From: Longimicrobiales bacterium | GTDB lineage: Bacteria; Gemmatimonadota; Gemmatimonadetes; Longimicrobiales; Gaopeijiaceae | DNA length: 64,000 nucleotides | Direction of reading: 5' to 3' | NCBI GenBank assembly: GCA_965204735.1 | Contig: OZ242008.1 | Location: forward strand, 2,240,001-2,304,000 | In this document: positions 17,375 through 59,639 of the stretch, piece after piece | Numbering within the stretch: position 1 is the stretch's first letter | How the letters are laid out: each line of letters starts with the position of its first letter | Position numbers and translations under genes: made by a program | The notes under the pieces: model-generated | What the model saw: only the letters and a program-made list of their open reading frames with translations | Told to the model about the DNA's origin: nothing | Database searches by the model: none

Positions 17375-17490
17375 GGGCGCGTCGCCGCGTCCATGGCTGA
17401 ACGGGGACGGCCGCCGGAACGCCATCACGCAACCTCCCGAAGCTCAAGGGCGCGTCGCCGCTTCCATGGCTGAACGGGGACGGCTGTCGG
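17375..17490 (+). repeat. Direct repeat (~43 bp, 73-bp period) between convergent genes
   Basis: GGGCGCGTCGCCGC(G/T)TCCATGGCTGAACGGGGACGGC at 17375 and 17448. Confidence 0.8.
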
Positions 17491-17519
17491 GATCGCTCCC
17501 CCGCTCCCTCGGGCGCGGA

Positions 17520-18905: not shown

Positions 18906-21080
18906 TCAGTCTTGGTCGAACTTGATCCTGCCGAGGAGTCCTAGGCGGCGTTCCAAAGGCAAGCGACCGTCGGCGACTTGTTCTCCGAAGAAGTCGAGGA
19001 GCAGGCTCATTCCCGGCGCCTGGGCATCTTCGGTGGCCTTGCCGCTCAAGATCGCCCACTGGGTTCCCACGTTCAGTCGGTAGCCGGCCGGGCCTTCTCG
19101 GCTCCAGCGGCCGAAGGGCTTGAGCTGGCTGCCGCCGGGCAGGAACACCCCGTAGCTCAGCTCCATGGCCAAGCGCTCGGGCGCCCAGCCGGGGACGGCC
19201 CTGGTTGCGGAAAGGCCGTTGCTTGCCGGGCCGGGAACCACCGGAAGGCCGGCCGCCGGATCATCGCCTTGGGCTGCCGGGTCGCCGTTGGCGGAAGCGC
19301 CGCCGCCTGGCGCTGCCGGACCCGCTGCGCCCAGGCCCGCGCCGAGGCCCGACACGCCGGCGTTCCGCCACACGTCGCTGCCGCCCTGCCACAGCGTCTG
19401 GGCGCCGCCGGAGGCGTTCCCCCACGACGGCTCCAGCGAGAACGACAGGCCGCCGTCTTCGCGTCCGGGCTGCAGGCGCAACGCGACGCCGGCGCCCCAC
19501 TCCTTGAAGTTCCGGTCCTGGTGGATCAGCAGCATCCGGCCACGGGCGTCCAGGCTCAGGCCGCTGCCCGCGTGCGTGAAGCCCAGCTCGGCGCCCGCTT
19601 CGGCGCCCATTCCCGTCTCCGCGTCGCCCCGGTCGTAGCGTCCGCCCACCTCGATGCGCGTCCGCATGGCGACGCTGCCGCCGGACCATTGCCCGCCCAG
19701 CTCGGGCGCCAGCCGCACCCGCTGGGCGTCGGCCTTCACGGCAACCACATGTCCGTTCGACGCGTCCGTCGTCATGCGCACCGCGAAGGCGTCGGCCTTC
19801 AGCGCCAGGCCGCCCACCAGCCGCTGGCGCACGCCCAGCGCGCCCATCCGCATGTCCAGGTCGGCGTCGTAGGTGGGGCCCGTCTCGCCCACGTTGGCGG
19901 CGCCCCGCCCCGCGCCGGCCAAGCCCCAGATGCCGAAGCCGCCCTGGGACGACCAGCTGGCGTAGGGGTAGAGGCTGTTCAGGTGGGCCTTCGTCTTGCC
20001 CACGCCGTTGATCCCGCTCTCGTAGTTCGCCGCCATGTCGCTGCGCGAGCCGGCCAAGCCCATCAGGAAGCCCGAGCCGAAGCGGTAGTCCAGGCCCAGG
20101 TAGGCCGAGCGGGTGCGGCCGTCCATGGCGAAGTCGTCTTCGGGACGGCCCTCGAACTCGCCCACGTTGGCTTGGCCCCACAGCGTCCAGCCGGCCTGGG
20201 AGGCCGTCTGCGCCGGGGACGCGCTGGGCAAGCCGGCGTCGGTGCCGTCACCCTCCGCGACGGCGGCGCCTTGCCCGTCGGGCGAGCCGCCGAAGGAGAG
20301 CTGGAACGAGCTCCGGGAGCGGAGGTCGCGGCCCGTCAGCGGGCTGAAGGCGATGCCGCCGCGTTCGCGCTCGGCGGGCAGCGCGTCCTCTTCCCGCTGG
20401 CCCTGGTACGAGCCGCCCAAGCCGAGGGCGCCGTGCGGAGCGCCGCCCATGTCCGCCGTGGCGTCGCCAAAGAGAAGCGCCGCCAAGTCCAGTGTCCCGC
20501 CCGGGATGCCGCCGGGTCCCGAACCGGCGACGCCCGGGTGGGTGATCTGGAGCCCCAGCAGCCCCGTTGCGTCCCGCACCAGCGACTCGAGGCCGCAGCG
20601 GCCGCCCGAGACGCCCCCGCCCAAACCCGCGCCGGCGTGGGCCGAGGCCGTGCTGGCCTGGTCCGAGCCGCCTTGGTCTTGGCCTGAGCCGCCCTGGCGC
20701 GAACCGTCTTGGCCTGAGCCGCCATGGCCTTGGTCCGCACCGCCTTGGTCCGAACCGTCCTGGCCTGGGCCGCCCTGGCCCGGGGCCGAGGCACCCTGGC
20801 CTTGGTCCGCACCGCCTTGGCCCGCGTCCGCGACGCCAGCCGCTCCACCGTCCCCGACCGCTCGGGACGAGGATGTGCCGCTGGACGCGACGCCCGAGCC
20901 GCGGCCGCCGCCGAACGCGACGCAGCTCAGCGAACGCCCGCCCAGCTGCACGTGCGAACGGCCCAGCGAACCCGACGACTCCAGACCCAACCGACCGCCG
21001 ATCGCATCGACCGTCTCCGTCCCCAGCGACCGACCGAACGCCGCCAGCGTCAGCTTCAGCGCACGCGCCCGATCCGAACG
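18906..21080 (-). other. C-terminal autotransporter-type outer-membrane beta-barrel region of gene B
   Basis: Alpha-linker LKLTLAAFGRSLGTETVDAIGGR, then WTLWGQ...SAYLGLDYRF...LYPYASW...GGRYDRGDAETGMGAEAG...EWGAGVALRL...LSFSLEPSWG; aromatic residue near the C-terminus. Confidence 0.75.
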
Positions 21081-24000
21081 CGACGCCGACACCGTCACGC
21101 TCGCCTGCTGCGTCGCCGTCAGCCCGCCCGCATCGGTCGCCGTCACCGTCACCACCGCCGCGCCGATCCCCTGCGGCGCCACCGACAGCCGCCCCGCGCC
21201 CGACACCGACGCGGCCGCCACGTCCGGCAACGACGACACCACCACGTAGCTCAGCGCGTCGCCGTCCGGGTCCCGGAAGTACTCGCCCAGACCCACCTCC
21301 CACGGCGCACCGCCCACCTCCAGCACCGGCGGCGACAGCGAGCCCACCGCCTCCGGACCCTCGTTCACGTCCAGCAGCGTCACCACGACCGCCGCCTCGG
21401 CCGTCAGTCCGCCCGCGTCCGTGACGCGCACCACCAGCGCGAACTCCGGCGGACCGTCCTCGTAGTCTTCGCCGGCGCCCACGTAGCGCACCACCCCGCT
21501 CGCGCCGTTCACATCGAACCGACCCGCGTCGCCCTGCGCCAAGGTGTATGTCAGCGCGTCGCCGCGGTCCGGGTCCGTCGCCTCGACCCGTCCCAGCTCC
21601 CGAGGCCCGCGCACGTTCTCCGCCAGATCGAACGCATATGCGGAGTCCACGAACGCAGGCGCCTCGTTCACGTCCAGCAACAGCACCCTCACCTTCGCCA
21701 CCGCCGCCAACCCCGCACGGTCCGTCGCCACCACCTCGAACTCCCAGCCCTCTGGACCTGTCTCCGCGTCCTCGCCAGCGCCCACGTACCGCACCACGCC
21801 GCTCGACTCGCCCACGTCGAACAGCGCCGCGCGCGCGCCGCTCAAGCTGTAGCGCAGCGTGTCGCCCGCGTCCACGTCCGTTGCCTCGACCGTGCCCAGC
21901 TCCACCGGGCCCGCCATGTGCTCCGCCAACTCCCACTCCCAGATCGACTCCACGAACACCGGGCCCTCGTTCCGGTCCTCGAGCGTCACGACGACACGCG
22001 CCCGCGCTGTCAGGCCGCCTCGGTCCGTCGCCGTCACCTCCAGCTCCCAGCTGCCCGGGCCCGTCTCCGCGTCCTCGCCTGCGCCCACGTACTGCACCGC
22101 ACCGCTCGTCGCGTTCACCTTGAACCGCTCGGCGTCGCCCGCCGTCAGCGCGTACGACAGCCAGTCGCCGCCGTCCGGGTCCGTCGCCCGAACCTCGCCC
22201 AGCAGCAGCGGACCACGAGCGTTCTCCGCCAGATCGAAGGCGTACGCAGAGTCGGCGAACGCTGGCCCCTCGTTCACGTTCGTCAGCGCCACCGCCACCA
22301 CCGCCTTGGCGCTCGCGCCCGCCAGGTCCGTCGCCGTGACTTCCAGCTCCCACGACTTCGGCCCCGCGCCCTCGTAGTCCTCGCCCGAGCCCACGTACTG
22401 CACCTCGCCCGTCGCGCCGTCCACCTCGAACCGATCGGCGTCGCCCGCCACCAGCCGGTACGTCAGCGTGTCCCCTTCGTCCAGGTCCACCGCCTCCGCC
22501 ACGCCCAGCGCCAGCGGCCCGGCAACGTTCTCCGCCATGGCGAAGGCGTACCGCTCCGCCGTGAACACCGGCGCGTCGTTCACGTTCACCAGCCGCACCG
22601 TCACCGTCGCGTCGCCCGTCCGCTCCCCGTCGTCCGCCGTCGCGCGCACGATCATCACGAACTCCGAACGCGCCTCCGCGTCTTCGCCGCTGCCCACGTA
22701 CCGCACCTCGCCGGTGCGAGCGTCCACCTCGAAGAGGCCCTCGTCGCCCGCCGCCAGCGAGTACGCCACCTCGCCGCCGAAGGGGTCCGTCGCGCTCACC
22801 GTCCCCACCACCACCGGCCCCGCCACATCCTCCGTCAGCTCGAACTCGTACTCCGCTCGACCGAACACCGGGTCCGTTCCGCCCGCCCCGTTCACCTGGT
22901 GTTCCTCCAGGTTCTCCACCGCGTAGCTGCCCAGGTCCAACACCGCCGCCGTCGTGCCGCCCGCGATCCGCAGCGCGCCGCCTGCCGCAGTCAGCGCGTC
23001 GGCCGGGATGCTGATCCCGTCCTCGTCCCGGTCCGCGGGCTGAACCACGTACTCGAACACCAGCACCGGCGTGCCCGAACCCGACACGTAGCTCGCGTGC
23101 CGCACCGCCGTCCCGATCTCGATCGCCAGGCGCACCGGAGCCGTCGCAGCCGACATGTGGCCTGCCTGCTGCGGCGCCCCCGCCACCTCCACTGGACGGC
23201 TGAACGTCACCGCCACCCGGATCACGCTGCGCGGACCGTACAGTCCGTTCGCTCCCGGCGTGCTCATCACCGTCATCCCCACCACCACCGGCACAACCTC
23301 GACCGTGCCGTCCACCTTGTCGTTCGCGGCCGCCGCGATCGCGTGGCTGCCCAACGCCAGCACCGCCGGACGAACGCCGTCCGCCGTGTTCACGATCGTC
23401 GCGCCGTTCAGCGTCAGCGCGGTTGCCGCCACGCCCACGCCGTCGGCATCGGCGTCGACGCCGCCCGTCCCGCTCCCGCCACTGCCCGCGCCCTGCACGC
23501 GGTACGCAAACGACAGCGTCGCCGTGCCGCTGCCGCTGGCGTAGTTCGCCTGCCGCGTCGCCGTGCCCACCGTCAGCGCCAACTGCGGTGCGCCCGTCAC
23601 CGTCACCGCCCGGTCGAACGTCACCTCCACCTCGATCCGCTCGCCCAAGCCGTAGGTGTCCCCGCTCTCGGGCGTGCTCGACACCGCGACACCCGTCACC
23701 GACGCGCCCGCCAGCGTGCCGTCCACCTTGTGGCCCGCAGCCGCGCTCAACGCGTGGCTGTCCAGTCCCAACGCCGCTGTCGTCGTGCCGTTGCGGGCGT
23801 CGGCGATCGTCCCGCTGTTCAGCGCCAACGCGCTCGCGCCGACTTCGATCCCGTCGGTGTCGGCGTCCGCCTGCACCACCGTGTAGCGGAACGTCAGCGT
23901 GTACGTGCCCGTCCCGCTCGCGTAGCCCGCCTGCCGCGTCGCAGCGCCCACCGTCAGCGCCACCTGCGGCGTGCCCGTCACGGTCACGCGACGGTTGAAC

Positions 24001-54000: not shown

Positions 54001-57000
54001 CCGTCGGCGTCCACGTCGGCCGTCTCCACCGTGTAGCGGAAGTGGATCGTACTGGGCCGAGAGGGCAGGCGTACGCCAAATGCTTGCTTGACGCTGTCCC
54101 CGATCGTCAGCTCCAGCAGCGGTTCGCCGGTCACGGCGACCGAGTCGCTGAAGTCCACTTCGACCCGAACGACCTCTCCCGCCCCGTACGTGTCGCCGGT
54201 GCGCGGCCCGTTGGCGAAGCGCACGCCGCTGACGACCGTGACGGCGACCGGCGTCGCCCTGACTTCGGAGCTCTCCGAGCCGGTCCCGTTGGCGTTCGCC
54301 GCTCGCACCTGGAACTTGTACGCGGCGCCGTTCGTCAGCGACCCCACCGTGTAGCTGGTCGTGGTCGCGCTGCTTCCCGAGATGTCGGTCCAGCCCGAGT
54401 ACGAACCAGCCGCCGGCCCGTGCCGGACCTGGTAGCCGACGATCGTGGTGTCCTGCGGATCGGTCCAGTTCAAGGTCGCTTGCGCATTGCCCGGAGTCGC
54501 GGTCAACCCCGTGGGCGCCGCGGGAACCGATCCTGTTGGCGTGGCAGAAGCGTTGACCTTGTGGCCGGGGGCGTTGACGATCTGATTTGTGCCGATCGCC
54601 GGGGAGACTAGGCTGAAGCTTGGCCGGTAGACGTAGAGCTCTCTGGTGTACGTAAACGCTTGGGGGTCCCAGGTACCGAAGTCCAGTGCATTCGGTCCGA
54701 TGCTGATGCCGTCCGGGTCGTGGTCGTCGCTCACAACGGTGTAACGGTAGTCGAAATAGGTATAATGCATCGTAAGGCCTCCACTCTCGCCCTGGCTCGT
54801 GCGTGTACTGCTGCCGATTTGCAAACTGAGTATAGGTCCCCATGAGTCCGAATCGATGTCATGTCCGTCGATCACGTGGAACCTCACTCGTATTTCTTCT
54901 CCAGTGCGGTAGCTGGCCCCGGTCCGAGGGCTGCTTGTAATCTCGACCCGGTTGATCCGGGCCCTGAACAGGCCGATCGTTGTGAAGGCCGCGTCTCCCG
55001 CCGCGGTACCGACCGTGGCTCGCAGTTCGATCCGGTAGGGCCGGCCTCCGTTCGATACCGTGACTTCGCCGGAGGTCGTCGTCGCACTGCTGGAAGGAAT
55101 GTTCGTCCACCCGGTGAAAGCACCGCCGTCCGACGGTCGGTAGCGATACTGATACCCCGTGATCAAGCTGTTGCCGGGGTTGATCCAGTCGAGCCTGGCC
55201 TGGGTGGCGCCCAAAGGGGTGGCGGTCAGCCCGCTGGGCGCCGCCGCCACCTTGCGTCCGTCGACCGCGTGGTCCGAGGCGTCCGAGATCGCGTGGCCGC
55301 CCAGGCCCAGCCTGGCGTTGATTGCCGTGGCGCTCCGGATCGTGCCCCCGTTGAGCCCCAGCGCGGTCGCTCCGACGCTGATCCCGTTGCCGTCCCTGTC
55401 CGCCGCCACCACCGTGTAGCTGAAGGTGAGCGTCTTCGTCCCGCTCCCGCTTGCGTACGAGGCCTGTCGCGTGGCGCTCCCGATCGTCAGCGCCAACCGA
55501 GGCGTCCCGGTTACGGTCACGGCGATGCTGAAGCCGACCTGCACGGAGATCGTGGCGCCCAGCGTGTACGTGCCCCCTCTCGGCGTGCTGGAGATCGTCA
55601 CGGACGCCACCGTCGGCGCTGTCGTGCTCCCGTTCACCTTGTGCGCCGCCGAGTTCGAGATCGCGTGCGTGCCCAAGGCCAGCGCGGCGGTCGCGCCCCC
55701 CGCGCTCCGGATCGTGCCGCCGTTCAGCCCCAGGGCGCCGGCCGCGATGCTGATCCCGTCGTTGTCCCGGTCGCCGGCCACCGTTTCGTAGCTGAAGGTG
55801 AGGGTCTTGGAACCGCTCCCGCTCGCGTAGGCCGCGTAGCGCGTGGCGCTCCCCACCGTCACCGCCAGTCGGGGGGCGCCCGTCACCGTCACCGCCAGAT
55901 TGAACGCGACCTGCACCGAGATCGTCTCTCCCGCCCCGTAGGTGCTGTCGCTCGCCGGGCTGCTCGCGATCGCGACGGAGGCGACCGCCGGCACCGTCCT
56001 GGTCCCGTTCACCTTGTGGGCGGGCACGTTGGAGAACGCGTGGCTTCCCAGCCCCAGCGTCGCGGCGGCGCCCGTCCCGCTCCGGATGCTTCCGCCGTTC
56101 AGCTCCAGCGCGTTCGCGCCCACGCTGATCCCGTCCGCGTCCAAGTCCGTCGCGAGCGTCTCGTAGCTGAACGTCAACGCGCTCGTTCCGTTCCCGCTCG
56201 CGTAGGCCGCGTGACGGGTGGCGCTCCCGATCGTCAGGGCCAGCCGGGGCGTGCCCGTGACCGTCACGGCGAACCCGAACGACACCCGCACCGAGATCGT
56301 CTCGGCCGCTGCGTAGGTGTCCCCGCTGTCCGGCCTGCTCGTGACGAGAACGTTGGTCACCGCAGGCATCGTCCTGCTCCCGTCCACCTTGTGGCCCGAG
56401 GCACTGCTGATCGCGTGCGTGCCCAGGCCTAGCGTGGCGTTCTGGGCCGACTCGCTGACGATCGACCCGCCGTTGAGCGTCAGCGCGCCGGACCCGACGC
56501 TGATTCCGTCGCGGTCCCGGTCCGTCGCGCGCGCAACGTAGCTGAACGTCAGCGTGCCGGTCCCGGTTCCGCTGGCGTACTCGGCGTGCCGGGTCCTCTC
56601 GCCAATTCCCAGCGCCACGCGGGGCGTGCCCGTCACGCTCACCGGCGTGGTGAAGCCGATCTGCACCGAGATCGTGTCGCCCGCTCCGTAGGTGTCGCCG
56701 CTGGCCGGCGCGCTCGCAATCGACGCCGCGCGCACCGCGGGAACCGTCGCCGTGCTGCCGTTCACCTTGTGGCCCGAGGCGTTGGTGACCGCGTGAGCGC
56801 CCAGCGCCAAGGTGGCGTTCGCCCCGGCCGCGCTCCGGATCGTGCCGGAGTTGAGCGCCATGGCGAACACCGAGACGCCGTCCGCGTCCCTGTCCGCCGA
56901 CCGCACGACGTAGCGGAAGGCCAGCTTCTTGCTGCCGCTCCCGCTCTGATATGCGGCCGTCTTGGCCAGCGAACCGACCGTCAAGGAGACGGTGGGGCTC

Positions 57001-59039
57001 CCGGTGACCGTCACCGGCGCCGTGAACCCGACTTCCACGCGAACCGCCTCGCCGGCGCCGTAGGTGTCTCCGCTCGCCGGCGCGCCGACGACCGCCACCG
57101 AACTCACGGTGGGCGTGGTGGCGGTCGTCCCGACCACCCGGTGGCCCGACGCATTGGATATGGCGTGGCTTCCCAGATCCAGGTTCGCGGCGGCGCCGGC
57201 CGTGCTCCGAATCGTCCCGCCGTTCAGTTGCAGGGCGGTCGTCCTGATGCTGATCCCGTCGGGGTCGAGATCGCGGCTGGTCACCACGTACCCGAAGTGC
57301 AGCGACTGGCCCGACGTTCTGCGCAACGTCGCGAACGCAGGCCCGCCGCCGAAAGCGATCTGCAACCGGGGACTGCCGACGACCCGGATCGGAACCGCGG
57401 CAGCGAACTCGACCTCCACCTCGATCAGCTCGCCGCCCCCGTACACTTGGGCGCTCAACGAAGGAGTGCTGGTGATGCGCACGCCGCTCACGCTCGGCGC
57501 GGTTGCCGAGGCGCCGTTCACCTTGTGGCTCGCATTGGCCGAGAAGGCGGCGGCCCCCAGGCCGAGCCCGGCGTTCCGCGTTCCGCCGACCTCCTTGATC
57601 GTCCCGCCGTTGAGCGCGAGCGCGTTGGCGGCGACGCCGATCCCGTCCAAGTCCGAATCCCCCGCCTGCACGACGTACCGAAACCCGATGCTGTTCGACC
57701 CGACGCTCTCGTAGGCGGCGTGGCGCACGGCGCTGCCGACCGTCAGCGCCAGCCGAGGCGCGCCGGTCAACGCGATCGGCGCGCTGAACTGCACTTCCAG
57801 TTGGACAACCTCGCCGGCGCCGTAGGTGTCGCCCGCAAGAGGCGTGCCGACGAAGCGCACTGCCGACACCAGCGGAAGTGTGGTCGGCGTCGCCTTGGCT
57901 TCGCTCGTCGAGCCGGCCCCGGCGCCGTTCCTGGCCCGGAGCTGAAACTTGTACTTGCTTTCATTCGTCAGCGGACGGACCACGTGGCGGGTGGTGGTGG
58001 CGTCGCTGCCCGCGATCGTCGTCCAGCTCGACGGGTAGCTGGCCGTATCCAGGGCGTGGCGAACTTCGTAGCTGCCGATGGTGGAGTTCCCGGGGTCGGT
58101 CCACGTCAGCGTCGCTTGGCCCGGCGCCGCCGTCGCGGCTAGCCCGGCGGGGGCGGCCGGGGCGGCGAGCGCGCCGTTGACCTTGTGCCCGGCGGCGTCG
58201 ACGATGCGGTGCCGGCCGATCGTCATGGTGGGGTGGCCGCCCCAGGCGTAGAAGAGATCGGCGTCGCTCAGCGCGTTGGGACCGATGCTGATCCCGTCGC
58301 TGTCCACGTCCGCCGTTTGGACGGTGTAGCTGAACGTATGCGTGGCCTGACCACGAGCGGTGTAGTTCCATGTCGCCCGTCGGCTGGCGCCGCCGATCGT
58401 GATGTCCAGGTACGGATGGCTCAGACCAGCGTAGCGGACGCTGTTATTCCACCTGACCGCTACCACAATCGTCTCGCCGGCGGCGTACGTGTCGCCCGTC
58501 GGCGAACTCGTGATCGAAACGCCGCTGATCGGCACGTTGGCCGTACTGACTCTCGTCCTGCTCGCCCCGCCGCAGTCAGCGCCGGCGCAGGCCCTGATTT
58601 CGAATTGGTACCGCCTGGGGCTGCTCAGGCCTCCGACCGTGGCCGAAGTCGTGCTGCTGTCGCTGCTTGCGACGTCCGTCCATTGATTGGGGAGATTGGT
58701 TCTGTACAAGGCGTAGCGGTACTGGTACTTGGTGATCGCCGCGTTGCCCGGGTTGTCCCAGCCCAGATCGATCGACGAGGTGGTGGCTTGGTGGGCCCAG
58801 AACCCGGTCGGCGCCGCAGGCGCCTGAGCGGCGGCAGGGCCTGCCGGGGCGAACACCGACGCAACTCCGGCGAACGCGAGGGCCGCGACCACGCAAGACC
58901 GCTTGGCTTGATGCCAGGCTTGGCGCCAATCGGAACCCGGCAAGCCGAACAAGCGCGCGCCCGTTCCTCGAATCACTGGCATCGCGACGGTTGCGGGGGA
59001 CCAAACAAAGGGGGGGGGGGGGGGGGGGGGCGGAGACAC
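18906..59039 (-). CDS. Giant autotransporter-like adhesin, gene B (~13,370 aa): signal peptide, 6 FN3, ~90 Ig-like repeats, 5 cadherin, beta-barrel
   Basis: Uninterrupted ORF in the track (18906-59663). The upstream ~200 codons overlap a plus-strand gene, so the start is placed at GTG 59039 (alternatives ATG 59147 and ATG 58982). Signal peptide ...VVAALAFAGVASVFAPAGPAAAQ. Repeats of type SGDTYGAGETIxVxVxF...VTGTPQLALTIG...YASGTGTxxLxFxYxV..DADADGISIGASALALNGGTI...HKVDG. Cadherin motifs A.D.D and NVNE.P.F. C-terminal amphipathic beta-strands ending GRIKFDQD. Confidence 0.93.
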   Translation of the reverse strand: MSPPPPPPPPFVWSPATVAMPVIRGTGARLFGLPGSDWRQAWHQAKRSCVVAALAFAGVASVFAPAGPAAAQAPAAPTGFWAHQATTSSIDLGWDNPGNAAITKYQYRYALYRTNLPNQWTDVASSDSSTTSATVGGLSSPRRYQFEIRACAGADCGGASRTRVSTANVPISGVSITSSPTGDTYAAGETIVVAVRWNNSVRYAGLSHPYLDITIGGASRRATWNYTARGQATHTFSYTVQTADVDSDGISIGPNALSDADLFYAWGGHPTMTIGRHRIVDAAGHKVNGALAAPAAPAGLAATAAPGQATLTWTDPGNSTIGSYEVRHALDTASYPSSWTTIAGSDATTTRHVVRPLTNESKYKFQLRARNGAGAGSTSEAKATPTTLPLVSAVRFVGTPLAGDTYGAGEVVQLEVQFSAPIALTGAPRLALTVGSAVRHAAYESVGSNSIGFRYVVQAGDSDLDGIGVAANALALNGGTIKEVGGTRNAGLGLGAAAFSANASHKVNGASATAPSVSGVRITSTPSLSAQVYGGGELIEVEVEFAAAVPIRVVGSPRLQIAFGGGPAFATLRRTSGQSLHFGYVVTSRDLDPDGISIRTTALQLNGGTIRSTAGAAANLDLGSHAISNASGHRVVGTTATTPTVSSVAVVGAPASGDTYGAGEAVRVEVGFTAPVTVTGSPTVSLTVGSLAKTAAYQSGSGSKKLAFRYVVRSADRDADGVSVFAMALNSGTIRSAAGANATLALGAHAVTNASGHKVNGSTATVPAVRAASIASAPASGDTYGAGDTISVQIGFTTPVSVTGTPRVALGIGERTRHAEYASGTGTGTLTFSYVARATDRDRDGISVGSGALTLNGGSIVSESAQNATLGLGTHAISSASGHKVDGSRTMPAVTNVLVTSRPDSGDTYAAAETISVRVSFGFAVTVTGTPRLALTIGSATRHAAYASGNGTSALTFSYETLATDLDADGISVGANALELNGGSIRSGTGAAATLGLGSHAFSNVPAHKVNGTRTVPAVASVAIASSPASDSTYGAGETISVQVAFNLAVTVTGAPRLAVTVGSATRYAAYASGSGSKTLTFSYETVAGDRDNDGISIAAGALGLNGGTIRSAGGATAALALGTHAISNSAAHKVNGSTTAPTVASVTISSTPRGGTYTLGATISVQVGFSIAVTVTGTPRLALTIGSATRQASYASGSGTKTLTFSYTVVAADRDGNGISVGATALGLNGGTIRSATAINARLGLGGHAISDASDHAVDGRKVAAAPSGLTATPLGATQARLDWINPGNSLITGYQYRYRPSDGGAFTGWTNIPSSSATTTSGEVTVSNGGRPYRIELRATVGTAAGDAAFTTIGLFRARINRVEITSSPRTGASYRTGEEIRVRFHVIDGHDIDSDSWGPILSLQIGSSTRTSQGESGGLTMHYTYFDYRYTVVSDDHDPDGISIGPNALDFGTWDPQAFTYTRELYVYRPSFSLVSPAIGTNQIVNAPGHKVNASATPTGSVPAAPTGLTATPGNAQATLNWTDPQDTTIVGYQVRHGPAAGSYSGWTDISGSSATTTSYTVGSLTNGAAYKFQVRAANANGTGSESSEVRATPVAVTVVSGVRFANGPRTGDTYGAGEVVRVEVDFSDSVAVTGEPLLELTIGDSVKQAFGVRLPSRPSTIHFRYTVETADVDADGIGIAAGALKLNGGTIIGVNSRAALLGLGAYAYAANASHKVDGSTGTVPNVDLVRITSTPVIGDVYGAGEQIEAEVRFGALVPIRVVGAPRLALAIGDSTRQATLTRTAGQSLHFRYTVRSSDSDADGIGIAAGALTLNGGTIRSTVGTNASLNLGSHAITAAATHKVTGSSATAPAVTGAAVTSTPVSGDTYGAGEKIGASVTFRLPITVTGSPQLALTIGTQTRQATYLRTAGRTLHFEYAVQAADRDANGIGIGASALTLNGGTIRSDAGAAATLGLGSHALSDASGHKVNGAVAPNPFVSAVRIASRPVASADSYGGGERIEVEVEFAAAIAIRVSGAPQLAIGIGSQTRQAALLETTGQVLRFGYVVQRADLDANGISILAGALALNGGTIRSAAGAGAVLGLGAHAIEDAAGQKVLGSNNATPAATSVEISSSPDDGDTYGATDTISVAVGFNVPVTVTGTPQLAVTIGSGTGQASYSSGSQTKTLTFDYEVGATDVDADGIGVGGSALTLNGGTIRSATAANATLSLAGHAIANAAGHKVNGTTTAPTVSSVAAASQPAIGGSYGAGETISVQVGFDLAVTVTGTPQLALSLDADTVQAAYAGGSGTKTLTFDYTVRATDRDADGFTVERGALTLNGGTIQSAGGADAALRLNVELLSDQIDGSVTPPEVASARFDTSPASGDTYGAGELIAVRIGFQIPVTVTGSPQLALGIGAATVQASYAGGSGSKSLAFSYVVQSADVDADGVSVGPTALALNGGTIRSAAGTNARLALGRTHQITNSSGHKVDGSTATPPSVTGARVASSPASGDTYGGGERIEVAVEFSIPVVVTGVPELALTIGDSTRQASYLIGSRTETLTFGYVVRATDVDADGFSVADSALSLAGGTLQSSFGAAAALSLGSHALAGVAAGKVNGATATVPAVVSAAIFSDAGSDSTYGAGDGIAVRIGFQIPVTVTGGPQLALGIGTGTAQASYAGGSGTKTLTFRYTVRATDVDSAGISVGASALSLNGGTIRSGTGTNAALGLGANAIASAAAHKVDGATTVPAVLAVVIASDAGADSTYTAGDTISVQVGFQIPVTVTGSPQLALGVGAATAQASYAGGSGTKTLTFDYVVQAADADSTGISVGASALALNGGTIRSGAGTNAALGLGTHAIADAAAHKVDGAGSPPRVDGVAVGSPVVGDTFERGEAISVTLTFDKAVDVTGTPQLALTIGAATRQASYASGTGTTSLVFRYTVVAADADADGLSIGAGALGLNGGTIDMAGGTTDAVLGLGSLAVSNSSGHKVAGGTFTAAAASGVTITSSPASDSTYVLGEQIEVEVTFARPVAVTGTPQLALTIGAATRQADYASGTGTKTLSFAYAVAAADTDADGIGIGASALGLNGGAIADARDSTTVASLGLGANAISNSAAHKVNGARGPPGVTGLAVGSPVVGDTFERGDTIAATVTFNKAVDVTGTPQLVLTIGAATQQAGYASGTGTASLVFRYVVASGDADADGLSIGAGALGLNGGTIDVAGGTTDALLGLGAHVLSNSSGHKVAGGTFTAAAVSGVAIASSPASDSTYGLNERIEVKVAFSRRVSVTGTPQLALTIGAATRQAEYASGTGTDTLSFAYTVGVADADSDGLGIGASALTLNGGAVADARDGATAAGLGLGTNAIAAAAAHKVDGTRGPPTVTGVAVGSPVVGDTFERGDTIAVTVTFHKAVDVTGTPQLALTIGAATRQAGYASGTGTASLVFRYVVASGDADADGLSIGASALTLNGGTIDEAGGTTDAALGLGSHAVSNSSGHKVAGATFTAAAVTGVTITSRPASDSTYGAGDRIEVEVTFARSVAVTGTPQLALTIGAATRQADYVAGTGTKTLAFRYAVAATDSDSDGISIGASALTLNGGGIADARDGATAAGLGLGANAVSNSAAHKVNGSLATLAAPSGLTATPTASGAIQLRWTDPSDTTITKYQVRHRNESSSGSFTAWADVASSGASTTSHTVSSLTDQVDYRFELRAVAGSRAGRASFALARPSDIWVTGVRITSSPTADDTYGPGQTIEVTVSFSAFRPRVTGSPVLKIGVGTATRDAAYSGTGLTSARFQYTVTAADADSDGISIGPNALDFTAGWVNTRFSIASPTIGRYAIANSASHKVDGLLGTPAAPTGFSASPGNAQVTLNWTDPSDTTLTGYQFRQAIATEPFSRWTDISGSDASTTSHIVPSLSNGTEYKFQVRAQNSVGAGHASEEARATPTSAPVVTAVRFVGTPVSGDTYGAGEVVRVDVEFSAVLTVTGSPRLALTIGAAARQAAMERVRERAVRFAYTVRSGDVDADGIGVAAAALTLGGGTISGPGGASAQLSLGARAFTANAAHKVNGATATAPFVDFVQITSSPSSGDTYGGGERIDVHVRFGAAVPITVVGSPRLALTVGAQTRQATLSRASGQSLHFGYVVQAADADADGVSIGASALTLNGATIRSGAGAAAGLGLGAHAVADASGHKVSGSTATAPAVSAVSITSAPASGDTYGAGEKITARVSFQLPIVVAGTPRLALAVGSQTRQAEFVRLSGQSMYFDYTVLSSDADADGISIAANALSLNGGTILSTIGTAAALGLGAHAVANASGHKVSGSTATTPEATSVSVTSAPVSGDTYGAGERIEVKVGFNLEVRTTGSPQLVLGVGAATRQAALLGGDGAGLTFGYVVQSADVDADGISVGASALGLNGGTIASTAGATAALGLGGHAIANASAHKVNGASATTPAVVSASVTSAPASGDTYYAGEAIAVAVGFDVPVAVTGAPQLALTIGAQTRQAAYVSGTNTKTLTFRYTVVLADSDSTGIAVGASALGLNGGTIRSGVGTNAGLGLGAHAIADAAGHKVDGTSTAPTVNAASIASTPATGDSYGAGETIAVEIGFNFPVTVTGTPRAALTIGAATRHADYASGSGNTSLRFEYVVDATDADADGISLAAGALELNGGTVRSSVGTDAALGLGSYAIADASAHKVNGAATAPAVTGATIVSDAGNDSTYAAGDAVSVEVAFQIPVTVTGTPQLALTIGTGVGQAAYAGGTGTKTLTFSYTVRATDVDGNGIAVAANALTLNGGALQSGAGTNAALSLGTFAIADAAAHKVDGTSTVPVVTGVAVASSPAGSDTYGAGETISVRVGFSIPVTVTGAPQLAVAVGSATRQVAYASGSGTTALVFDYVTLATDRDDDGISVGAGALTLNGGTIRSGSGTNATLALGSHAIANASGHKVNGAATAPLVSSMSISSAPASGDTYGGGEKITVSVVFQIPVTVTGTPQLALTVGNATRQADYASGSGTAALAFDYVVQTADSDSNGISVGPTALTLNGGTVRSAAGTNANLSLFVNAFSNSPDHKVDGSSATTPTVRAATIGSDAGADSTYFAHDAIVVEVGFSVPVTVTGAPQLVLTIGAQTRQASYASGSGTTALTFRYVVTAADSDSDGIAVGASALALNGGTIRSSVGADATLGLGANAIAAAAAHKVDGSQGPPGVTGVTVGSPVVGDAFERHDTIAVTVTFDQAVDVTGTPQLALTIGTATKQASYAGGTGTTALVFRYVVASGDVDADGLSIGAGALALNGGTIDEAGGTTDAVLGLGAHAVSNSSGHKVAGNTFTAASVSGVTISSTPPGTDSTYGLGDVIEVQVTYTRPVVVQGTHLLKLAVNIGTQTPYASYASGTGTKTLTFRYTVQASDSDSDGIGLPARALTLSGATISDARDGTTATSNGLGTHVITAAAAHKVDGSQGTAGVTALAIGSPPVGDAFERGDTIVVTVTFNKAVDVTGTPQLALGIGAATRQASYASGTGTAALVFRYVVVQADADADGLSIGAGALALNGGTIDVAGETTDALLGLGSRAVSNSSGHKVAGGTFTAASVSGVSITSSPSSDSTYGFGEQIEVQVAFNRRVSVTGTPQLALTIGAQTRQAAYASGTGTTTLTFRYAVGTADSDSDGIGIGASALALNGGAIADARDGSTAAGLGLGTNAIAAAAAHKVDSARGPPGVAGVAVASPVVGDTFERGDTIWVTVTFNKAVDVTGTPRLFLTIGTQTPTASYASGTGTTALRFRYVVAAGDADADGLSVAASALHLAGGTIDAAGDTTNASLSLGAHTLSNSSGHKVAGGTFTAAAVSGMSITSSPAADSTYGLGEQIEVQATFSRRVSVTGTPQLALTIGAQTRQAEYASGTGTTVLTFRYAVAVADADSDGIGIGASALTLNGGAIADARDGSTAAGLGLGANAVTAAAAHKVDGAQGAAGVTGVSIGDPVVGDTFERADTIAVTVTFNKAVDVTGAPQLALTIGAVTRQAAYASGTGTASLVFRYVVVQADADADGLSIGASALSLNGGTIDVAGETTDALLGLGSHAVSNSTGHKVAGGTLTGPAPSGVAIASTPSSDSTYGRTERIEVEVTFVRPVVVTGTPQLALTIGTQTRQASYASGTGTATLAFRYTVQGTDRDSTGLSVGASALALNGGTIADARDGTTAATLGLGAHAVSNAAAHKVDGSLGTPGVIGVSFADDPYNAEYERGDAIDVRVSFSRTVDVTGTPRLALGIGSQTRQAAYASGTGTNTLVFRYVVVQSDRDIDGISIGASALTLNGGTIRAAGTTMDAVLGLGSHAITNSSSHQVNGSLFTGLAVEDVVVRSVPASDSTYKLGERIELDVLFQRAVVVTGTPQLALGIGSATRQASYASGSGTKRLRFRYAVAAADVDADGISLSASALTLNGGTINDARAGGSAAGLGTSASVFSNDAAHKVNGGVGAPSVSALTIGAPVVGDVFERGDTIVATVEFNAAVAVTGTPQLALGIGSATRQAGYASGTGTASLVFRYVVVAADADADGLSVGASALALNGGTIRRTGTTTDAVLDLGAHAVTNSAGHKVAGGTFTAAAVSGVSIASVPGSDSTYVRTERIEVEVSFARPVTVTGTPQVALGIGSQTRQAAYASGSGTKTLTFRYAVQAADSDSDGISIGASALGLNGGTIVDARDGATAAGLGLGSHAIANAAAHKVDGARGPPGVSGLSIASPVVGDTFERGDTIAVTVTFTDSVDVTGTPRLALGIGSATQQASYASGTGTASLVFRYVVASGDADADGLSIGASALALNGGMIDVAGGTTDALLGLGSHAVSNSTGHKVAGGTFTAASVSGVTIASTPASDSTYAETEEIAVEVSFNRRVTVTGTPQLALAIDTLTRQAEYVDGTGTATLTFAYQVVAADADSTGLSIGASALGLNGGTIADARDGTTAASLGLGSNAVSDAAAHKVDGSLPPPPTRTTGAPEARGLAIGAPAVGDTFERGETIEVELVFHRAVDVTGAPQLALAIGAATRQAEYASGTGTDTLVFRYVVAIGDSDADGISIAASALTLNGGTIRASGEALDAVLDLGAYAIANSGGHKVAGGTFTTPAVSAVTISSAPAADSTYHLGERIEVKVAFGRPVTVTGAPQLALTIGSQTRQASWESATSKADTLVFGYAVRPADADTTGISIGSSALALNGGTINDVRAGATAASLGLGSNAIVNAAAHKVDGSLGPPGVTHLAVTAPLSAQTFERGDTIIASVRFNKAVDVTGTPQLALGIGSATRQASYASGTGATELEFRYVVVQSDADADGISIGANALTLNGGTIDVAGGTADALLSLERLAISNAAGFRVAGGTFTAPAVSWAGITSTPSDGSTYELGEQIDVTVTFNRNVTATGAPQLALTIGSQTRQAAYDSAASGSRELEFRYVVAAGDADANGISVGASALALNGGTIVDPRDGSTAANLGLGGNAIVDAAGHAVDGSRGPPGVSGASIASPPTGDTFERGDTVAATVTFNKAVDVTGTPQLALTIGTQTRQASYAGGTGTAALVFQYVVVQADADADGLSIGASALALNGGTIDVAGGTTDAVLGLGSHAVSNSTGHKVAGGTFTASSVSGVTISSSPASGDTYGLGEQIEVEASFVRPVSVTGTPQLALDVGTDTVQADYASGTGTKTLTFSYTVAASDADSDGISIGASALALNGGTIVDARDGSTAASLGLGSSAIANAASHKVDGAQGPPGVTALSVASPVVGDTFERGDTVAATVTFNKAVDVTGTPQLALTIGSATRQASYAGGTGTASLVFRYVVASGDADADGLSIGAGALSLNGGTIDVAGGTTDALLGLGASAVANSTGHKVAGGTFTAASVSGVAITSAPASDSTYGRTERIEVEVAFNRRVAVTGTPQVALTIGSQTRQAAYASGSGTTTLAFRYTVAAADADSTGIGIGASALTLNGGAIADARDGATAASLGLGTNAIANAAAHKVDGSRGPPGVTALSISAPTVGDTFERGETIEVSLLFNRAVDVTGTPRLALGIGSATRQASYAIGTGTDTLVFRYVVASGDADADGISIGASALALNGGTIRVAGGTLDATLGMGASAVVNSTGHKVAGGTFTTPAVSAVTVSSTPASASTYQLGESIEVKVAFGRPVAVTGSPQLALTIGTQTRQASYMAASSKADTLVFAYAVRPVDADADGISIGASALALNGGTIADVRPGAAAAALGLGASAVTNAAAHKVNGSLGPPGVVGLSVAAPLVGATFERGDTVAATVTFNKAVDVTGTPQLALSIGSQTRQASYASGTGTTALVFRYVVVQADADADGLSIGASALALNSGTIDVAGGTTDALLSLAHHAISNDGTRRVAGGTLTAASASGVAITSAPASDSTYGRTERIEVEVTFDRRVAVTGTPQVALTIGSQTRQADYASGTGTTTLTFGYTVAAADADANGISIGASALGLNGGTIADARDASEAAGLGLGSNAIANAAAHKVDGNQGPPGVSGLVVASPPTGDTFERGDVIAATVTFNRAVDVTGTPQLALGIGTQTRQASYASGSGTTSLVFQYTVVQADADADGLSIGTSALALNSGTIRLSGGTLDATLGLGTHAISNSTGHKVAGGTFTAASVSGVTISSAPSSGDTYGLGEEIEVEVTFVRPVSVTGTPQLALGVGTDTVQADYGSGTGTKTLAFSYTVAASDADSDGLSIGASALALNGGTIVDARDGSTAASLGLGSSAIANAASHKVDGAQGPPGVTALSIASPVVGDTFERGDTVAVTVTFNKAVDVTGTPQLALTIGAATRQASYAAGTGTASLVFRYVVASGDADADGLSIGASALALNGGTIDVAGGTTDALLGLGASAVSNNTGHKVAGGTFTAASVSGVAITSAPASDSTYGRTERIEVEVTFNRRVAVTGTPHLALTIGAQTRQAEYARGTGTATLAFRYTVAAADADSTGIGIGASALTLNSGAIADARDGATAASLGLGSNAIANAAAHKVDGSRGPPGVTGLSISAPTVGDTFERGETIEVSLLFNRSVDVTGTPRLALTIGSATRQAIYASGTGTDTLVFRYVVTSGDADADGLSIGASALALNGGTIRVAGGTLDATLGLGASAVTNSGSHKVAGGTFTTPAVSGVTVSSTPASASTYQLGESIEVKVAFGRPVAVTGSPRLALTIGSQTRQASYMAASSTADTLVFGYAVRPADADADGISIGASALTLNGGAINDVRPGSTAAALGLGANAVSNAAAHKVNGSLGPPGVVGLSVASPPVGTTFERGDTVAATVTFNKAVDVTGTPRLALGIGSQTRQASYASGTGTTALVFRYVVVQADADSDGLSIGASALALNGGTIDVAGGTTDALLSLAHHAISNDGARRVAGGTFTAATASGVAITSSPASDSTYGRTERIEVEVTFDRRVAVTGTPQLALTIGSQTRQASYASGTGTKGLTFGYTVVAADADANGISIGASALALNGGTIADARDASEAAGLGLGSNAIANAASHKVDGNQGPPGVIGLVLASPPVGDMFERGDVIAATLTFNRAVAVTGTPQLALAIGAQTRQASYASGSGTTALVFQYTVVTADADADGLSIGTGALALNSGTIRLSGGTLDATLGLGTHAISNSTGHKVAGGTFTASSVSGVTISSAPSSGDTYGLGEEIEVEVTFVRPVNVTGLPQVALTVGAATRQADYASGTGTKTLTFSYEVVAGDADSDGVSVGASALALNSGTINDARDGSTAASLGLGSSAIANAAAHKVDGAQGPPGVTGLLIGAPHVGDTFERGETIEVKVAFNKAVAVTGTPQLQLRFSSGSKQADYASGTGTDTLVFRYVVVAADADADGLGIGASDLRLNGGTIRRSGTATDAVLGLGSHAVIRSTGHKVAGGTFTASAVSGVTITSEPSSDSTYGRTERIEVEVTFTRPVTVTGPPQLALGIGTQTRQAAYASGSGTTTLVFGYTVASADVDSTGLSIGASALALNGGTIADARDGTTAASLGLGSNAIANAASHKVDGSRGPPGVTGLSISAPTVGDTFERGETIDVSMGFNRAVDVTGTPRLALTIGSATRQASYASGTGTDTLVFRYVVASGDADSDGLSIGASALALNGGTIRVAGGMLDATLGLGASAVTNSAGHKVAGGTFTTPAVTAVTVSSTPASASTYQLGESIEVKVAFGRPVAVTGSPRLALTIGTVTRQASYESATSKADTLVFGYAIRPADADTDGISIGASALTLNGGAINDVRPGATAAALGLGANAVSNAASHKVNGSLGPPGVVGLSVAAPPVGTTFERGDTVAATVTFNKAVAVTGTPQLALSIGTQTRQAGYASGTGTTALVFQYVVVQADADADGLSIGASALALNGGTIDVSGGTTDALLSLAHHAISNDGARRVAGGTFTAASASGVSISSAPASDSTYGRTERIEVEVTFDRRVAVTGTPQVALTIGSQTRQANYASGSGTTTLTFGYTVAAADADANGISIGASALALNGGTIADARDASEAAGLGLGSNAIANAAAHKVDGNQGPPGVTGLVVASPPTGDTFERGDVIAATLTFNRAVDVTGTPQLGLGIGTQTRQASYASGSGTTALVFQYTVVTADVDANGLSIGTSALALNSGTIRLSGGTLDATLGLGTHAISNSTGHKVAGGTFTASSVSGVAITSTPSSGDTYGLGEEIEVEVTFVRPVNVTGTPQLALTVGTRTRQAEYASGTGTKTLTFSYMVVAADADSDGLSVGTSALALNGGTIADARDGSTAASLGLGSSAITNAAAHKVDGAQGPPGVTGLLIGSPHVGDTFERGETIEVKVAFNKTVAVTGTPQLALGIGSATKQASYAAGTGTDTLVFQYVVAAADVDADGISIGASALALNGGTVRRLATTTDAVLGLGASAVANSTGHKVAGGTFTASAVSGVAITSSPSSDSIYGRTERIEVEVSFTRPVTVTGVPQLALGIGSQTRQAAYASGSGTTTLAFGYTVQAADADSDGLSIAASALALNGGTIADARDGSTAASLGLGSNAVANAAAHKVDGSRGPPGVTALSISAPTVGDTFERGETIEVSLVFNRSVDVTGTPRLALTIGSATRQASYASGTGTDTLVFRYVVASGDTDADGISIGASALALNGGTIRVAGGTLDATLGLGTSAVTNSGGHKVAGGTFTTPAVSAVTVSSTPASASTYQLGESIEVKVAFGRPVAVTGSPRLALTIGTVTRQADYESATSKADTLVFGYAVRPADADTDGISIGASALTLNGGAINDVRPGAAAAALGLGANAVSNAAAHKVNGSLGPPGVVGLSVDAPPVGTTFERGDTVVATVTFNKAVDVTGTPQLALGVGSQTRQAGYASGTGTTVLVFRYVVAQADADGDGISIGASALALNGGTIDVAGGTTDALLSLAHHAISNDRARRVAGGTFTASSVSEVSIQSSPAGGSTYGLSEQIEVEVTFNRTVTVTGAPQLALTIGSRTRQAAYVSVTAGRQLAFRYEVVAGDADANGLSVGASALTLNGGTIADARDGTTAASLGLGSHAISNDAAHRVDGNQGPPGVSGVTIASPPVGDTFERGDTVVATVTFNKAVAVTGTPQLALTIGAGTKQASYASGTGTASLVFRYVVVTADADADGLSIGASALALNGGTIDVAGGTVDAVLGLGAHAVTNSAGHKVAGGTFTAASVSGVSLTSSPAVATTYGRDEQIEVQVTFNRRVTVTGTPQVALTVGAATRQAGYASGTGTYTLTFRYTVVQADADTDGIEVGASALALNSGTIADARNGTTTAALGLDSHALSAAAGHKVDGTLAGASVTGVAVSSTPESGDTYGLGERIEVEVTFDRAVTVTGAPQLALTVGTATRQANYASGSGTATLSFAYRVQGAGSGGSGTGGVDADADGVGVAATALTLNGATIVNTADGVRPAVLALGSHAIAAAANDKVDGTVEVVPVVVGMTVMSTPGANGLYGPRSVIRVAVTFSRPVEVAGAPQQAGHMSAATAPVRLAIEIGTAVRHASYVSGSGTPVLVFEYVVQPADRDEDGISIPADALTAAGGALRIAGGTTAAVLDLGSYAVENLEEHQVNGAGGTDPVFGRAEYEFELTEDVAGPVVVGTVSATDPFGGEVAYSLAAGDEGLFEVDARTGEVRYVGSGEDAEARSEFVMIVRATADDGERTGDATVTVRLVNVNDAPVFTAERYAFAMAENVAGPLALGVAEAVDLDEGDTLTYRLVAGDADRFEVDGATGEVQYVGSGEDYEGAGPKSWELEVTATDLAGASAKAVVAVALTNVNEGPAFADSAYAFDLAENARGPLLLGEVRATDPDGGDWLSYALTAGDAERFKVNATSGAVQYVGAGEDAETGPGSWELEVTATDRGGLTARARVVVTLEDRNEGPVFVESIWEWELAEHMAGPVELGTVEATDVDAGDTLRYSLSGARAALFDVGESSGVVRYVGAGEDAETGPEGWEFEVVATDRAGLAAVAKVRVLLLDVNEAPAFVDSAYAFDLAENVRGPRELGRVEATDPDRGDALTYTLAQGDAGRFDVNGASGVVRYVGAGEDYEDGPPEFALVVRVTDAGGLTAEAAVVVTLLDVNEGPEAVGSLSPPVLEVGGAPWEVGLGEYFRDPDGDALSYVVVSSLPDVAAASVSGAGRLSVAPQGIGAAVVTVTATDAGGLTATQQASVTVSASRSDRARALKLTLAAFGRSLGTETVDAIGGRLGLESSGSLGRSHVQLGGRSLSCVAFGGGRGSGVASSGTSSSRAVGDGGAAGVADAGQGGADQGQGASAPGQGGPGQDGSDQGGADQGHGGSGQDGSRQGGSGQDQGGSDQASTASAHAGAGLGGGVSGGRCGLESLVRDATGLLGLQITHPGVAGSGPGGIPGGTLDLAALLFGDATADMGGAPHGALGLGGSYQGQREEDALPAERERGGIAFSPLTGRDLRSRSSFQLSFGGSPDGQGAAVAEGDGTDAGLPSASPAQTASQAGWTLWGQANVGEFEGRPEDDFAMDGRTRSAYLGLDYRFGSGFLMGLAGSRSDMAANYESGINGVGKTKAHLNSLYPYASWSSQGGFGIWGLAGAGRGAANVGETGPTYDADLDMRMGALGVRQRLVGGLALKADAFAVRMTTDASNGHVVAVKADAQRVRLAPELGGQWSGGSVAMRTRIEVGGRYDRGDAETGMGAEAGAELGFTHAGSGLSLDARGRMLLIHQDRNFKEWGAGVALRLQPGREDGGLSFSLEPSWGNASGGAQTLWQGGSDVWRNAGVSGLGAGLGAAGPAAPGGGASANGDPAAQGDDPAAGLPVVPGPASNGLSATRAVPGWAPERLAMELSYGVFLPGGSQLKPFGRWSREGPAGYRLNVGTQWAILSGKATEDAQAPGMSLLLDFFGEQVADGRLPLERRLGLLGRIKFDQD
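21085..22880 (-). repeat. Five cadherin-like domains plus one Ig-like (FRDPDGDALSY) domain in gene B
   Basis: Repeated P.F....Y.F.L.E/ ATDPD.GD.L.Y.L / F.V....G.V.YVG.GED.E / V.ATD..GL / L.DVNE. Confidence 0.85.
23700..37900 (-). repeat. Higher-order tandem repeat, 3039-bp (1013-aa, 8-domain) period, ~4.5 units
   Basis: Equivalent TCCACCTTG anchors at 23722, 26761, 29800, 32839 and 35878. Shadow ORFs recur at 27076/30115/33154/36193 and 28150/31189/34228. Confidence 0.9.
59010..59030 (-). repeat. G21 (poly-C on coding strand) homopolymer, candidate phase-variation tract of gene B
   Basis: 21 consecutive G at 59010-59030. In frame: GTG TCT CCG (CCC)7 TTT GTT TGG = VSPPPPPPPPFVW. Confidence 0.85.
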
Positions 59040-59363
59040 TGACGAATGATACACGCCGGGCCGCCTGGCTGCTACCGTTGCCCTCGTCCCCGGGCCGCGT
59101 GCGTTGACCGGATAGTGATCTCTGCGACCGGATCGTCCTCGCGGCATCGTCCACGGGCGCGTTGACCCCGGCCCGCATGCGGCGGTGACCAGCCGGCGCG
59201 CCCACATTGCTCCACCGCACGCGTTGGCCCGGCGTCGGCCGCCGGCTACCGGCGCGTTGGCCCGAGCGGCGGCGACGCCGTACACTTGGGCCGATCGCAC
59301 ACTTGAGCCGACTCGGCCGGGCGGATGCTCGGCTCCGGCTCCCGATGCCCACGGAGCGTCGAA

Positions 59364-59639
59364 ATGCCCTTCGCCACATGGGTCCGGATCGCCTGGGCCT
59401 ACCACCTCGCCTTCGCCGCGGCCGTCACGTGGCCGGGCCAGACGCTTGTGAACGTCCCGTCGCCCTTCGTGCTCGGGATGCCGCGCCAGATGGCGTGGGT
59501 GGCGGCTTGGCTGGTCGGCAGCCTCCTCGTGCTGTGGCGCATGGAGGCGGCGCGCAGGCGGAGCCGCGGCGAGGCGCCGGCGGGCTCGGCGCACACTCCG
59601 CCCGAGGAATCGGTCAGGCGCGAGCCCTCTGGTGAGTAG
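59364..59639 (+). CDS. Small membrane protein (DUF3311-like partner of sodium:solute symporter)
   Basis: ATG 59364 with GGAG upstream. Two hydrophobic segments and a PFVLGMP motif. Overlaps the start of the symporter gene. Confidence 0.7.
   Translation: MPFATWVRIAWAYHLAFAAAVTWPGQTLVNVPSPFVLGMPRQMAWVAAWLVGSLLVLWRMEAARRRSRGEAPAGSAHTPPEESVRREPSGE

Follow-up and report, generated by a model that had tools for sequence, protein, structure and literature searches.

The giant gene and its surroundings

The window, a stretch of 64,000 nt from a Longimicrobiales genome without a single N, carries on its minus strand a reading frame (18906-59663) of 13,585 codons that is not interrupted by a stop. The sensible start within this frame is either the ATG at 58982 or the in-frame GTG at 59039. 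The ORF that begins at the ATG (18906..58982) encodes 13,358 aa followed by the stop codon, and the one that begins at the GTG encodes 13,377 aa; thus, the uninterrupted 40-kb ORF of ~13,400 aa described by a sequence-only reading of this DNA is real. The ATG precedes a signal-like peptide, and the GC content of the ORF at codon positions 1, 2, and 3 is 0.65, 0.59, and 0.93, respectively. The GTG is a possible upstream start, whose use would add an in-frame leader of 19 codons (VSPPPPPPPPFVWSPATVA; 58983..59039, minus strand) containing a run of 21 C residues. This C21 homopolymer, which lies on the coding strand at 59010..59030, 27 nt upstream of the ATG, is a candidate slipped-strand switch. 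Starting at 59663 would bring the ORF into overlap with the solute-symporter gene of the opposite strand, and this start was rejected for that reason. The long plus-strand ORFs over the giant gene were set aside as shadows; three such ORFs tested over a paralog have no Pfam match. Neither end of the gene has a consensus promoter or terminator, and its leader RNA is less structured than shuffled sequences.

The genes on either side (9073-18892 and 59632-62566) are housekeeping genes, encoding FloA/NfeD, a beta-oxidation-type cluster (two enoyl-CoA hydratases, an aldehyde dehydrogenase, a thiolase, and a 3-hydroxyacyl-CoA dehydrogenase), a metallo-beta-lactamase-fold protein, a sodium:solute symporter, and ribosomal protein L21. 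No synteny was found between these flanks and those of the congeners' giants. At the edge of the window (1..7331, minus strand) lies the 5' part of a second member of the same family, a 5,146-aa frame that runs off the window and whose leader, starting at an ATG, reads in frame through a C21 tract (7295-7315).

Predicted signal peptide and passenger

The protein begins with a predicted Sec signal peptide of 52 aa (58827..58982, minus strand), read by eye and ending AAA/Q. Both here and in the paralogs, this peptide has a basic segment, then a hydrophobic one, and an AxA pattern, again as judged by eye. There follows a passenger stalk (22887..58823, minus strand) of 90 repeats of ~126 aa that carry a DxDxDG motif, with 6 FN3 domains interspersed in the order F r1 F r7 F r1 F r16 F r1 F r64 (F, FN3; r, repeats). 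Within the distal stalk, two repeat types alternate, giving a higher-order period of 3,039 nt, or 8 domains. The stalk is succeeded by five cadherin-like domains (21363..22877, minus strand; Pfam PF00028, E 2e-35) and by a bacterial Ig domain, Big_9 (21084..21362, minus strand). The unit counts come from a self-built HMM; on the segments scanned with Pfam, fn3, Cadherin, and Big_9 were matched. FN3 domains and cadherins had been proposed before from the letters alone, and both are found. Of the ~90 Ig-like repeats proposed along with them, the count stands, at exactly 90, and the Ig-like character has weak leads.

These leads are as follows. The ~126-aa repeat has no match in Pfam, NCBIfam, or the PDB. 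It is widespread: of 8,000 candidates that were scored, 1,976 have it at E<=1e-10, and many of these carry Pfam PF17964 (Big_10) or PF17957 entries. A search of the ESM Atlas led to Big_5/Big_12 clusters only (0.88). From its sequence, the repeat is likely to be Ig-like.

The interval 22887-58823 also contains 21 RGD motifs, 19 of which fall within the FERGD turn of one repeat type; they may be incidental to a conserved G-D/E position. Separately, positions 23500-44000, over which the 3,039-nt higher-order period extends, include a 503-nt exact match to a second genomic locus, seemingly the third giant, which suggests recent exchange between paralogs.

The C-terminal region

Between the passenger and the C-terminus (20199..21083, minus strand) are a conserved predicted α helix (RSDRARALKLTLAAFGRS; the helix is inferred from sequence), a G/S/Q low-complexity linker, and a conserved RSSFQL motif. 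At 54 of 59 family loci, the barrel has this helix motif ahead of it. The C-terminal region of 435 aa then starts with predicted autotransporter-like strands 1-12 (19464..20198, minus strand) and continues into six more amphipathic strands, also predicted (13-18; 18909..19463, minus strand), an extension that ends LGLLGRIKFDQD. The strands were assigned by eye, from the alternating hydrophobic pattern of the sequence only: 12 map onto the autotransporter domain and 6 more make 18. The last predicted strand ends GRIKF, and the chain ends RIKF-DQD.

Plain Pfam and NCBIfam scans of the barrel region found nothing, and the C-terminal 726 aa have no Pfam match at E<=0.01. When the genome was searched with PF03797, the giant matched model positions 1-112 of 255 with 22.8 bits, short of the cut-off of 26. 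One paralog and several relatives exceed this cut-off; among the relatives, L234 and L235 reach 62.8 and 60.5 bits over positions 1-211 of 255, and these match the giant's barrel family at ~1e-47. In the ESM Atlas, 29 of 30 matches to the barrel are autotransporter clusters (top 0.96), with a recognition score of 2244, below the tool's mark of 2300. Sequence searches of the PDB returned no relative of the barrel, and a tblastn search of plasmids with a bridging barrel returned nothing. The barrel family comprises 7,793 clusters (50% identity) at E<=0.001. A sample of 141 barrels, taken from the best 150 matches, has a median length of 382 aa; an aromatic residue, the BAM signal of type Va autotransporters, occurs within the final four positions in 118 of them.

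The C-terminus is thus likely a divergent, C-terminally extended autotransporter-type barrel, as predicted from its sequence, and departs from the 12-strand ending by six predicted amphipathic segments beyond strand 12. An earlier proposal of a C-terminal barrel survives as regards barrel-like strands in the sequence and is lost as regards a canonical Pfam autotransporter domain.

Length of the gene

The longest exact repeat inside the giant gene is 80 nt, and its repeat blocks, when aligned, are 71-84% identical. A collapsed or inflated assembly would leave near-identical copies; the divergence of the repeats therefore indicates that the length is not an assembly artefact. The genome itself is a single contig of 4.14 Mb, 98% complete. 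Frames of >10,000 aa with the same C-terminal family are present in all three congeneric genomes examined: those ending in the barrel are 11,976 and 12,557 aa in G001, 13,057 and 11,123 aa in G002, and 10,722 aa in G003. A genome of a different genus (G254) has a 13,298-aa frame that also ends in the barrel. In the G002 counterpart the order of FN3 and cadherin domains is identical, with 22 and 56 repeats versus 16 and 64 here. As in the congeners, passenger and C-terminal region share one open frame.

Metagenomes add to this picture. Contigs assembled in three further studies match portions of the 5' 10 kb at ~89-100% identity, mostly >95%, and no contig of the four metagenome runs compared spans the whole 12.5-kb 5' stretch; contig joints with short sides, which arise from repeats, were left out of this comparison. 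Mis-assembly of the repeat array, which the sequence-only reading had named as fatal to its proposal, does not hold up in view of the diverged repeats and of the giant counterparts in congeners, and an assembly artefact is largely excluded, mostly by the homologs.

The gene family and its host

The genome contains 17 genes with the common C-terminal family, which together amount to 303 kb, or 7.3% of the genome. Their N-termini differ and their C-terminus is common. Three of the 17 paralogs are ~13,000 aa long, one of them broken by a single-base loss in the barrel. This third giant (L011, G000:C1:2771492-2811507) has no 5' tract, and its one-base loss falls early in the barrel. The barrel is likewise broken in G003 (a 2,405-aa frame) and in L045/L046; such broken barrels are possibly pseudogenes, released forms, or sequencing errors. 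Another locus (L017, G000:C1:3500616-3503963) is a 1,116-aa frame of the ~126-aa repeat with a lipoprotein-like N-terminus and without a barrel.

All 59 family loci from the genome collection searched belong to Longimicrobiales or Gemmatimonadota MAGs. Within the host's taxonomic family, 20 of 120 genomes have the barrel family, nearly all of them assemblies of <=20 contigs, and its absence from other genomes may reflect fragmentation. Eight metagenome runs hold at least half of the 5' stretch: four from sponges (one study), two marine, and two that are a possible source. No RNA dataset is listed among those with the stretch. One sponge run (X5) has long pieces matching the 5' stretch. The host is likely a sponge symbiont.

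C tracts at the starts of family genes

C/G runs of at least 10 nt number 29 in the genome, in which run lengths fall off at 6-8 nt. Of the 17 family genes, 12 carry one of these runs, C16-C33 on the coding strand, at the 5' end, for an expected 0.2; with the giant set aside, 11 of its 16 sister genes have one. The other five paralogs, one of the three giants among them, do not. When broken and fragment rows are excluded, a tract is found in 10 of 16 family genes of G002, 11 of 16 of G003, and 1 of 6 of G001; in one G002 gene (L082) it precedes the signal peptide, outside the counting window. Of genes whose start fell inside the retrieved flank, one further genome has a tract in 6 of 9 and two others in 0 of 3 and 0 of 2. 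Paralogs and congeners are not independent, and the statistics of enrichment overstate it.

The position of the tracts was examined at 35 of them (L089 and L091, which have none, having been dropped). An ATG lies <=40 nt upstream in 24 of the 35, versus 100 of 350 control windows, for loci that are not independent. Of the 24 resulting leaders, 8 share the adhesin's frame, 11 are shifted to +1, and 5 to +2 (the frame of L100 was assigned by hand), a split that fits thirds (chi-square ~2.3, by hand). In all 11 of the +1 leaders, the stop codon falls between -2 and +13 nt relative to the main ATG. Stops in the +1 frame are common in high-GC genes, however, and with a split of about thirds, a three-state model of fusion, translational coupling, and off is not claimed. 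Shine-Dalgarno energies do not differ significantly between the upstream and the signal-peptide ATG (-4.4 versus -3.6 kcal/mol; random, -3.9; p 0.08-0.19). The giant's own leader has a GTG rather than an ATG ahead of the tract.

Another four tracts have promoter-like sequence around them: in three, TTGACA follows immediately, and the fourth is flanked by TTGACT and TATAAT, its locus reading TTGACT-T-G14-CAT-TATAAT. Two loci carry G instead of C on the coding strand. The G002 counterpart of the giant has G12 within unrelated flanking sequence, which speaks for selection acting on a slippery run rather than on prolines.

Tract lengths differ between homologous starts, paired by eye from N-terminal sequences: C16/C21, C19/C28, C26/C22, C20/C17, C27/C21/C24, C33/C19/C26, and C21/G12. 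The paralogous leaders L036 and L037 have C22 and an interrupted run ending in C11, respectively, the latter possibly a stabilised tract. Contigs of metagenome run X1 break at 58995-59043, that is, at the C21 tract, and an X5 contig runs through this stretch with 18 gap letters; both fit biological variation or homopolymer error alike. Long homopolymers are error-prone in assemblies, and the lengths given here come from consensus assemblies, so ON and OFF frames read from them are unreliable. A metagenome pattern scan with the shared signal-peptide start gave chance matches, with 0 of 80 checked loci (of 120) having the family signal or a tract. The placement of tracts at the 5' end of surface genes, together with the length differences between homologs, fits a simple-sequence contingency locus. 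The family tracts likely represent slipped-strand phase variation, and each would be a candidate switch.

The genes assigned to the remaining tracts are of the usual contingency classes. A type IIG (MmeI/Eco57I-like) restriction-modification gene (L223, G000:C1:2685702-2689728) is frameshifted exactly at a C18 run and is a candidate phase-variable methyltransferase. A 1,501-aa Mrr/helicase/N6-methylase gene (L224, G000:C1:3422070-3426572) has an in-frame C13. Three tandem paralogs (L225, G000:C1:967593-973351) have runs just after their start codons, namely C19 out of frame, C14 in frame, and one interrupted; the two that were scanned have weak PMT_2 (GT-C) matches. AlgX-type acetyltransferase, Cas3, and HsdR genes likewise contain or adjoin tracts. 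The genome shows no mutS deficiency.

A proposed surface adhesin under a candidate switch

The giant is best read as a type Va-like autotransporter adhesin, with Sec export, a predicted 18-stranded barrel as anchor, a stalk of ~100 domains, and the C21 tract as expression switch, a reading to which we give a probability of about 0.7. From the sequence we infer the barrel fold and its strand number, export, Ca2+ stiffening, a reach of 400-500 nm, adhesion, and switching by the tract. The predicted signal peptide would take the chain through Sec, and the predicted C-terminal barrel of 18 strands would be inserted by BAM/TAM and anchor the chain. Omp85 and TamB are above cut-offs in the genome, where BamA adjoins TamB at 714-720 kb. 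Two more Omp85-type frames, of 2,408 and 1,636 aa, are at G000:C1:1121199-1128422 and 2000151-2001116. Outside the cell, the ~100 domains, which are likely of Ig type, would form a long stalk with the FN3-rich end distal and the cadherins near the membrane; at 4-5 nm per domain, it would reach ~400-500 nm. Its DxDxDG motifs may provide stiffening by Ca2+, and its target may be the sponge matrix or neighbouring cells. In most paralogs, where the tract follows a start codon, tract length would set the reading frame of the short leader; in the four with a tract abutting or inside a TTGACA-type promoter, it would set promoter spacing. Slippage could then cause cells within one host to display different subsets of the family.

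That the length is an assembly artefact, or that the protein is instead a type I secretion substrate, is extremely improbable. The gap in contig coverage of the 12.5-kb stretch would suit an artefact, and the genome does have TolC-like and membrane-fusion genes that score below cut-off; against these stand diverged repeats, equivalent giants in four other genomes, a predicted N-terminal signal, and the absence both of GGxGxD (RTX) nonapeptides from the giant and of any genome match to TolC or HlyD at the cut-offs for type I secretion. An earlier remark that the window shows no type I secretion genes or RTX nonapeptides is in this way extended to the whole genome, at those cut-offs, and to the giant. 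A passenger exported in the same manner might also act as a spacer, as a shield versus phagocytes or phage, or after cleavage as a released protein, and not as a ligand-binding adhesin. No ligand-binding tip domain or enzyme appears in the segments scanned, 90 near-equivalent repeats make up most of the chain, and the low-complexity linker ahead of the barrel could be cut. We regard this as unlikely, however, given that a role in host attachment has been proposed for the FN3 and cadherin domains of sponge symbionts (PMC6506613, PMC10947273) and that variable N-termini with a common C-terminus are expected of varied tips on a common anchor.

The anchor itself could be a type Va barrel of the ordinary 12 strands, with the final ~185 residues outside the wall as a periplasmic tail or accessory sheet. 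Homology to PF03797 does reach only about the first ten strands, and the extension has a long unconserved loop and a length that differs among members. Nevertheless, the extra segments alternate hydrophobic residues as membrane strands do, and the terminal aromatic is on the last extra strand rather than on strand 12. The strand-13 motif was found in 91 of 158 sequences, and in all 91 it is followed by at least 60 residues. Members counted by eye end at 16 strands (L234, L235, L249, L252, L254, L259, and L237), 18, or ~22 (P0045), always an even number. A closed antiparallel barrel needs such even steps, which favours a wider barrel over a tail. We consider the 12-stranded form distinctly unlikely. 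As for the tracts, fixed polyproline leaders or sequencing artefacts could take the place of switches, since C runs encode proline in every frame and the lengths come from consensus assemblies. This is highly unlikely, with G on the coding strand at two loci, four tracts in promoter-like sequence, only 8 of 24 leaders in frame, a methyltransferase gene broken at a C tract, and recurrence of tracts at gene starts across separate assemblies.

Comparison with known systems

The giant resembles type Va autotransporters (PF03797) in having a predicted N-terminal signal, a passenger, a predicted helix linker, and a C-terminal barrel-like domain with a terminal aromatic, and members of its family pass PF03797. 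In contrast, its barrel gave no detectable alignment by hhalign/hmmsearch with four E. coli K-12 autotransporters, Ag43, YfaL, YpjA, and YcgV (not significant, probability 2.5%, with a shallow four-sequence template). LapA, SiiE, and RTX adhesins are type I-secreted giant adhesins that likewise consist of very long chains of repeated domains. Unlike these, the giant lacks an RTX motif and a type I system over cut-off, and has its own barrel-like anchor.

In Neisseria, the autotransporters NalP and MspA undergo homopolymer phase variation. Like those of Bordetella and Neisseria, the tracts described here are long C/G runs that occupy either the promoter or the 5' coding part of genes for surface proteins, autotransporters included. 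The present family differs in that tracts head most of a 17-gene family, often in a leader before the signal-peptide ATG, in an uncultured marine Gemmatimonadota, where they are a candidate switch. In Bordetella, the variable run is a coding tract in bapC and a C-stretch in the promoters of fim2, fim3, and fimX, according to the account in PMC1891110.

The largest autotransporter given in a 2012 survey is BigE, with 10,429 aa, and the reference barrels listed there are <=294 aa (PMC3419190). The giant is ~28% longer than BigE, its passenger consists of discrete FN3, cadherin, and Ig-like repeats whereas BigE is described there as BrkA-like, and barrels of its family, at ~340-435 aa, have 4-10 extra predicted strands. 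A type V passenger, as the sequence-only reading proposed, remains the best reading, with neither a canonical barrel nor, in view of BigE, a wholly unprecedented size. Omnitrophota giants are also very long chains of repeated domains for which adhesion is proposed; as described, they include transmembrane as well as SecA-like domains, with type II secretion-like loci next to them (10.1101/2023.11.21.568195).

Among sponge symbionts, the cyanobacterium 'Ca. Synechococcus feldmannii' has FN3, cadherin, and autotransporter domains together, with a proposed role in adhesion; the domains are of the same kinds as here, and the giant size, extended barrel, and homopolymer switch are absent from the domain lists of that paper (PMC6506613). 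FN3/cadherin-type domains have more generally been linked to attachment in sponge microbiomes (PMC10947273). The main text of a paper on sponge-associated Gemmatimonadota (PMC10469786) mentions no cadherin, fibronectin, secretion, adhesion, or phase variation. The literature searched, in which subscription journals are thinly covered and from which supplements are excluded, has no description of the barrel family, of an 18-stranded or extended autotransporter barrel, or of phase variation in a sponge symbiont.

We tentatively suggest that these proteins form a distinct, very large type V subclass, in which a translocator of 16 to 22 strands has grown by hairpin additions and exports Ig/FN3/cadherin passengers of up to ~13,400 aa, and that Gemmatimonadota in sponges deploy a switched repertoire of up to ~17 such adhesins through poly-C leaders. 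Within the wider-barrel reading, chains of ~13,400 aa may be, with similar reservation, the longest autotransporter-like proteins found on record. As an autotransporter adhesin, the giant would extend how large a single-chain type V protein is known to be, and would offer a natural test of the barrel width needed to export a passenger of Ig-type domains. The FN3 and cadherin proteins whose enrichment in sponge symbionts has long been reported would also gain a candidate route of export. The family suggests, further, that a likely symbiont gives 7% of its genome to a pathogen-style phase-variable surface repertoire, so that sponge host recognition becomes testable from read-level tract lengths. 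Set beside the known systems, the giant likely works like a type Va adhesin, yet it misses the PF03797 cut-off and, as judged from sequence, the strand-12 ending.
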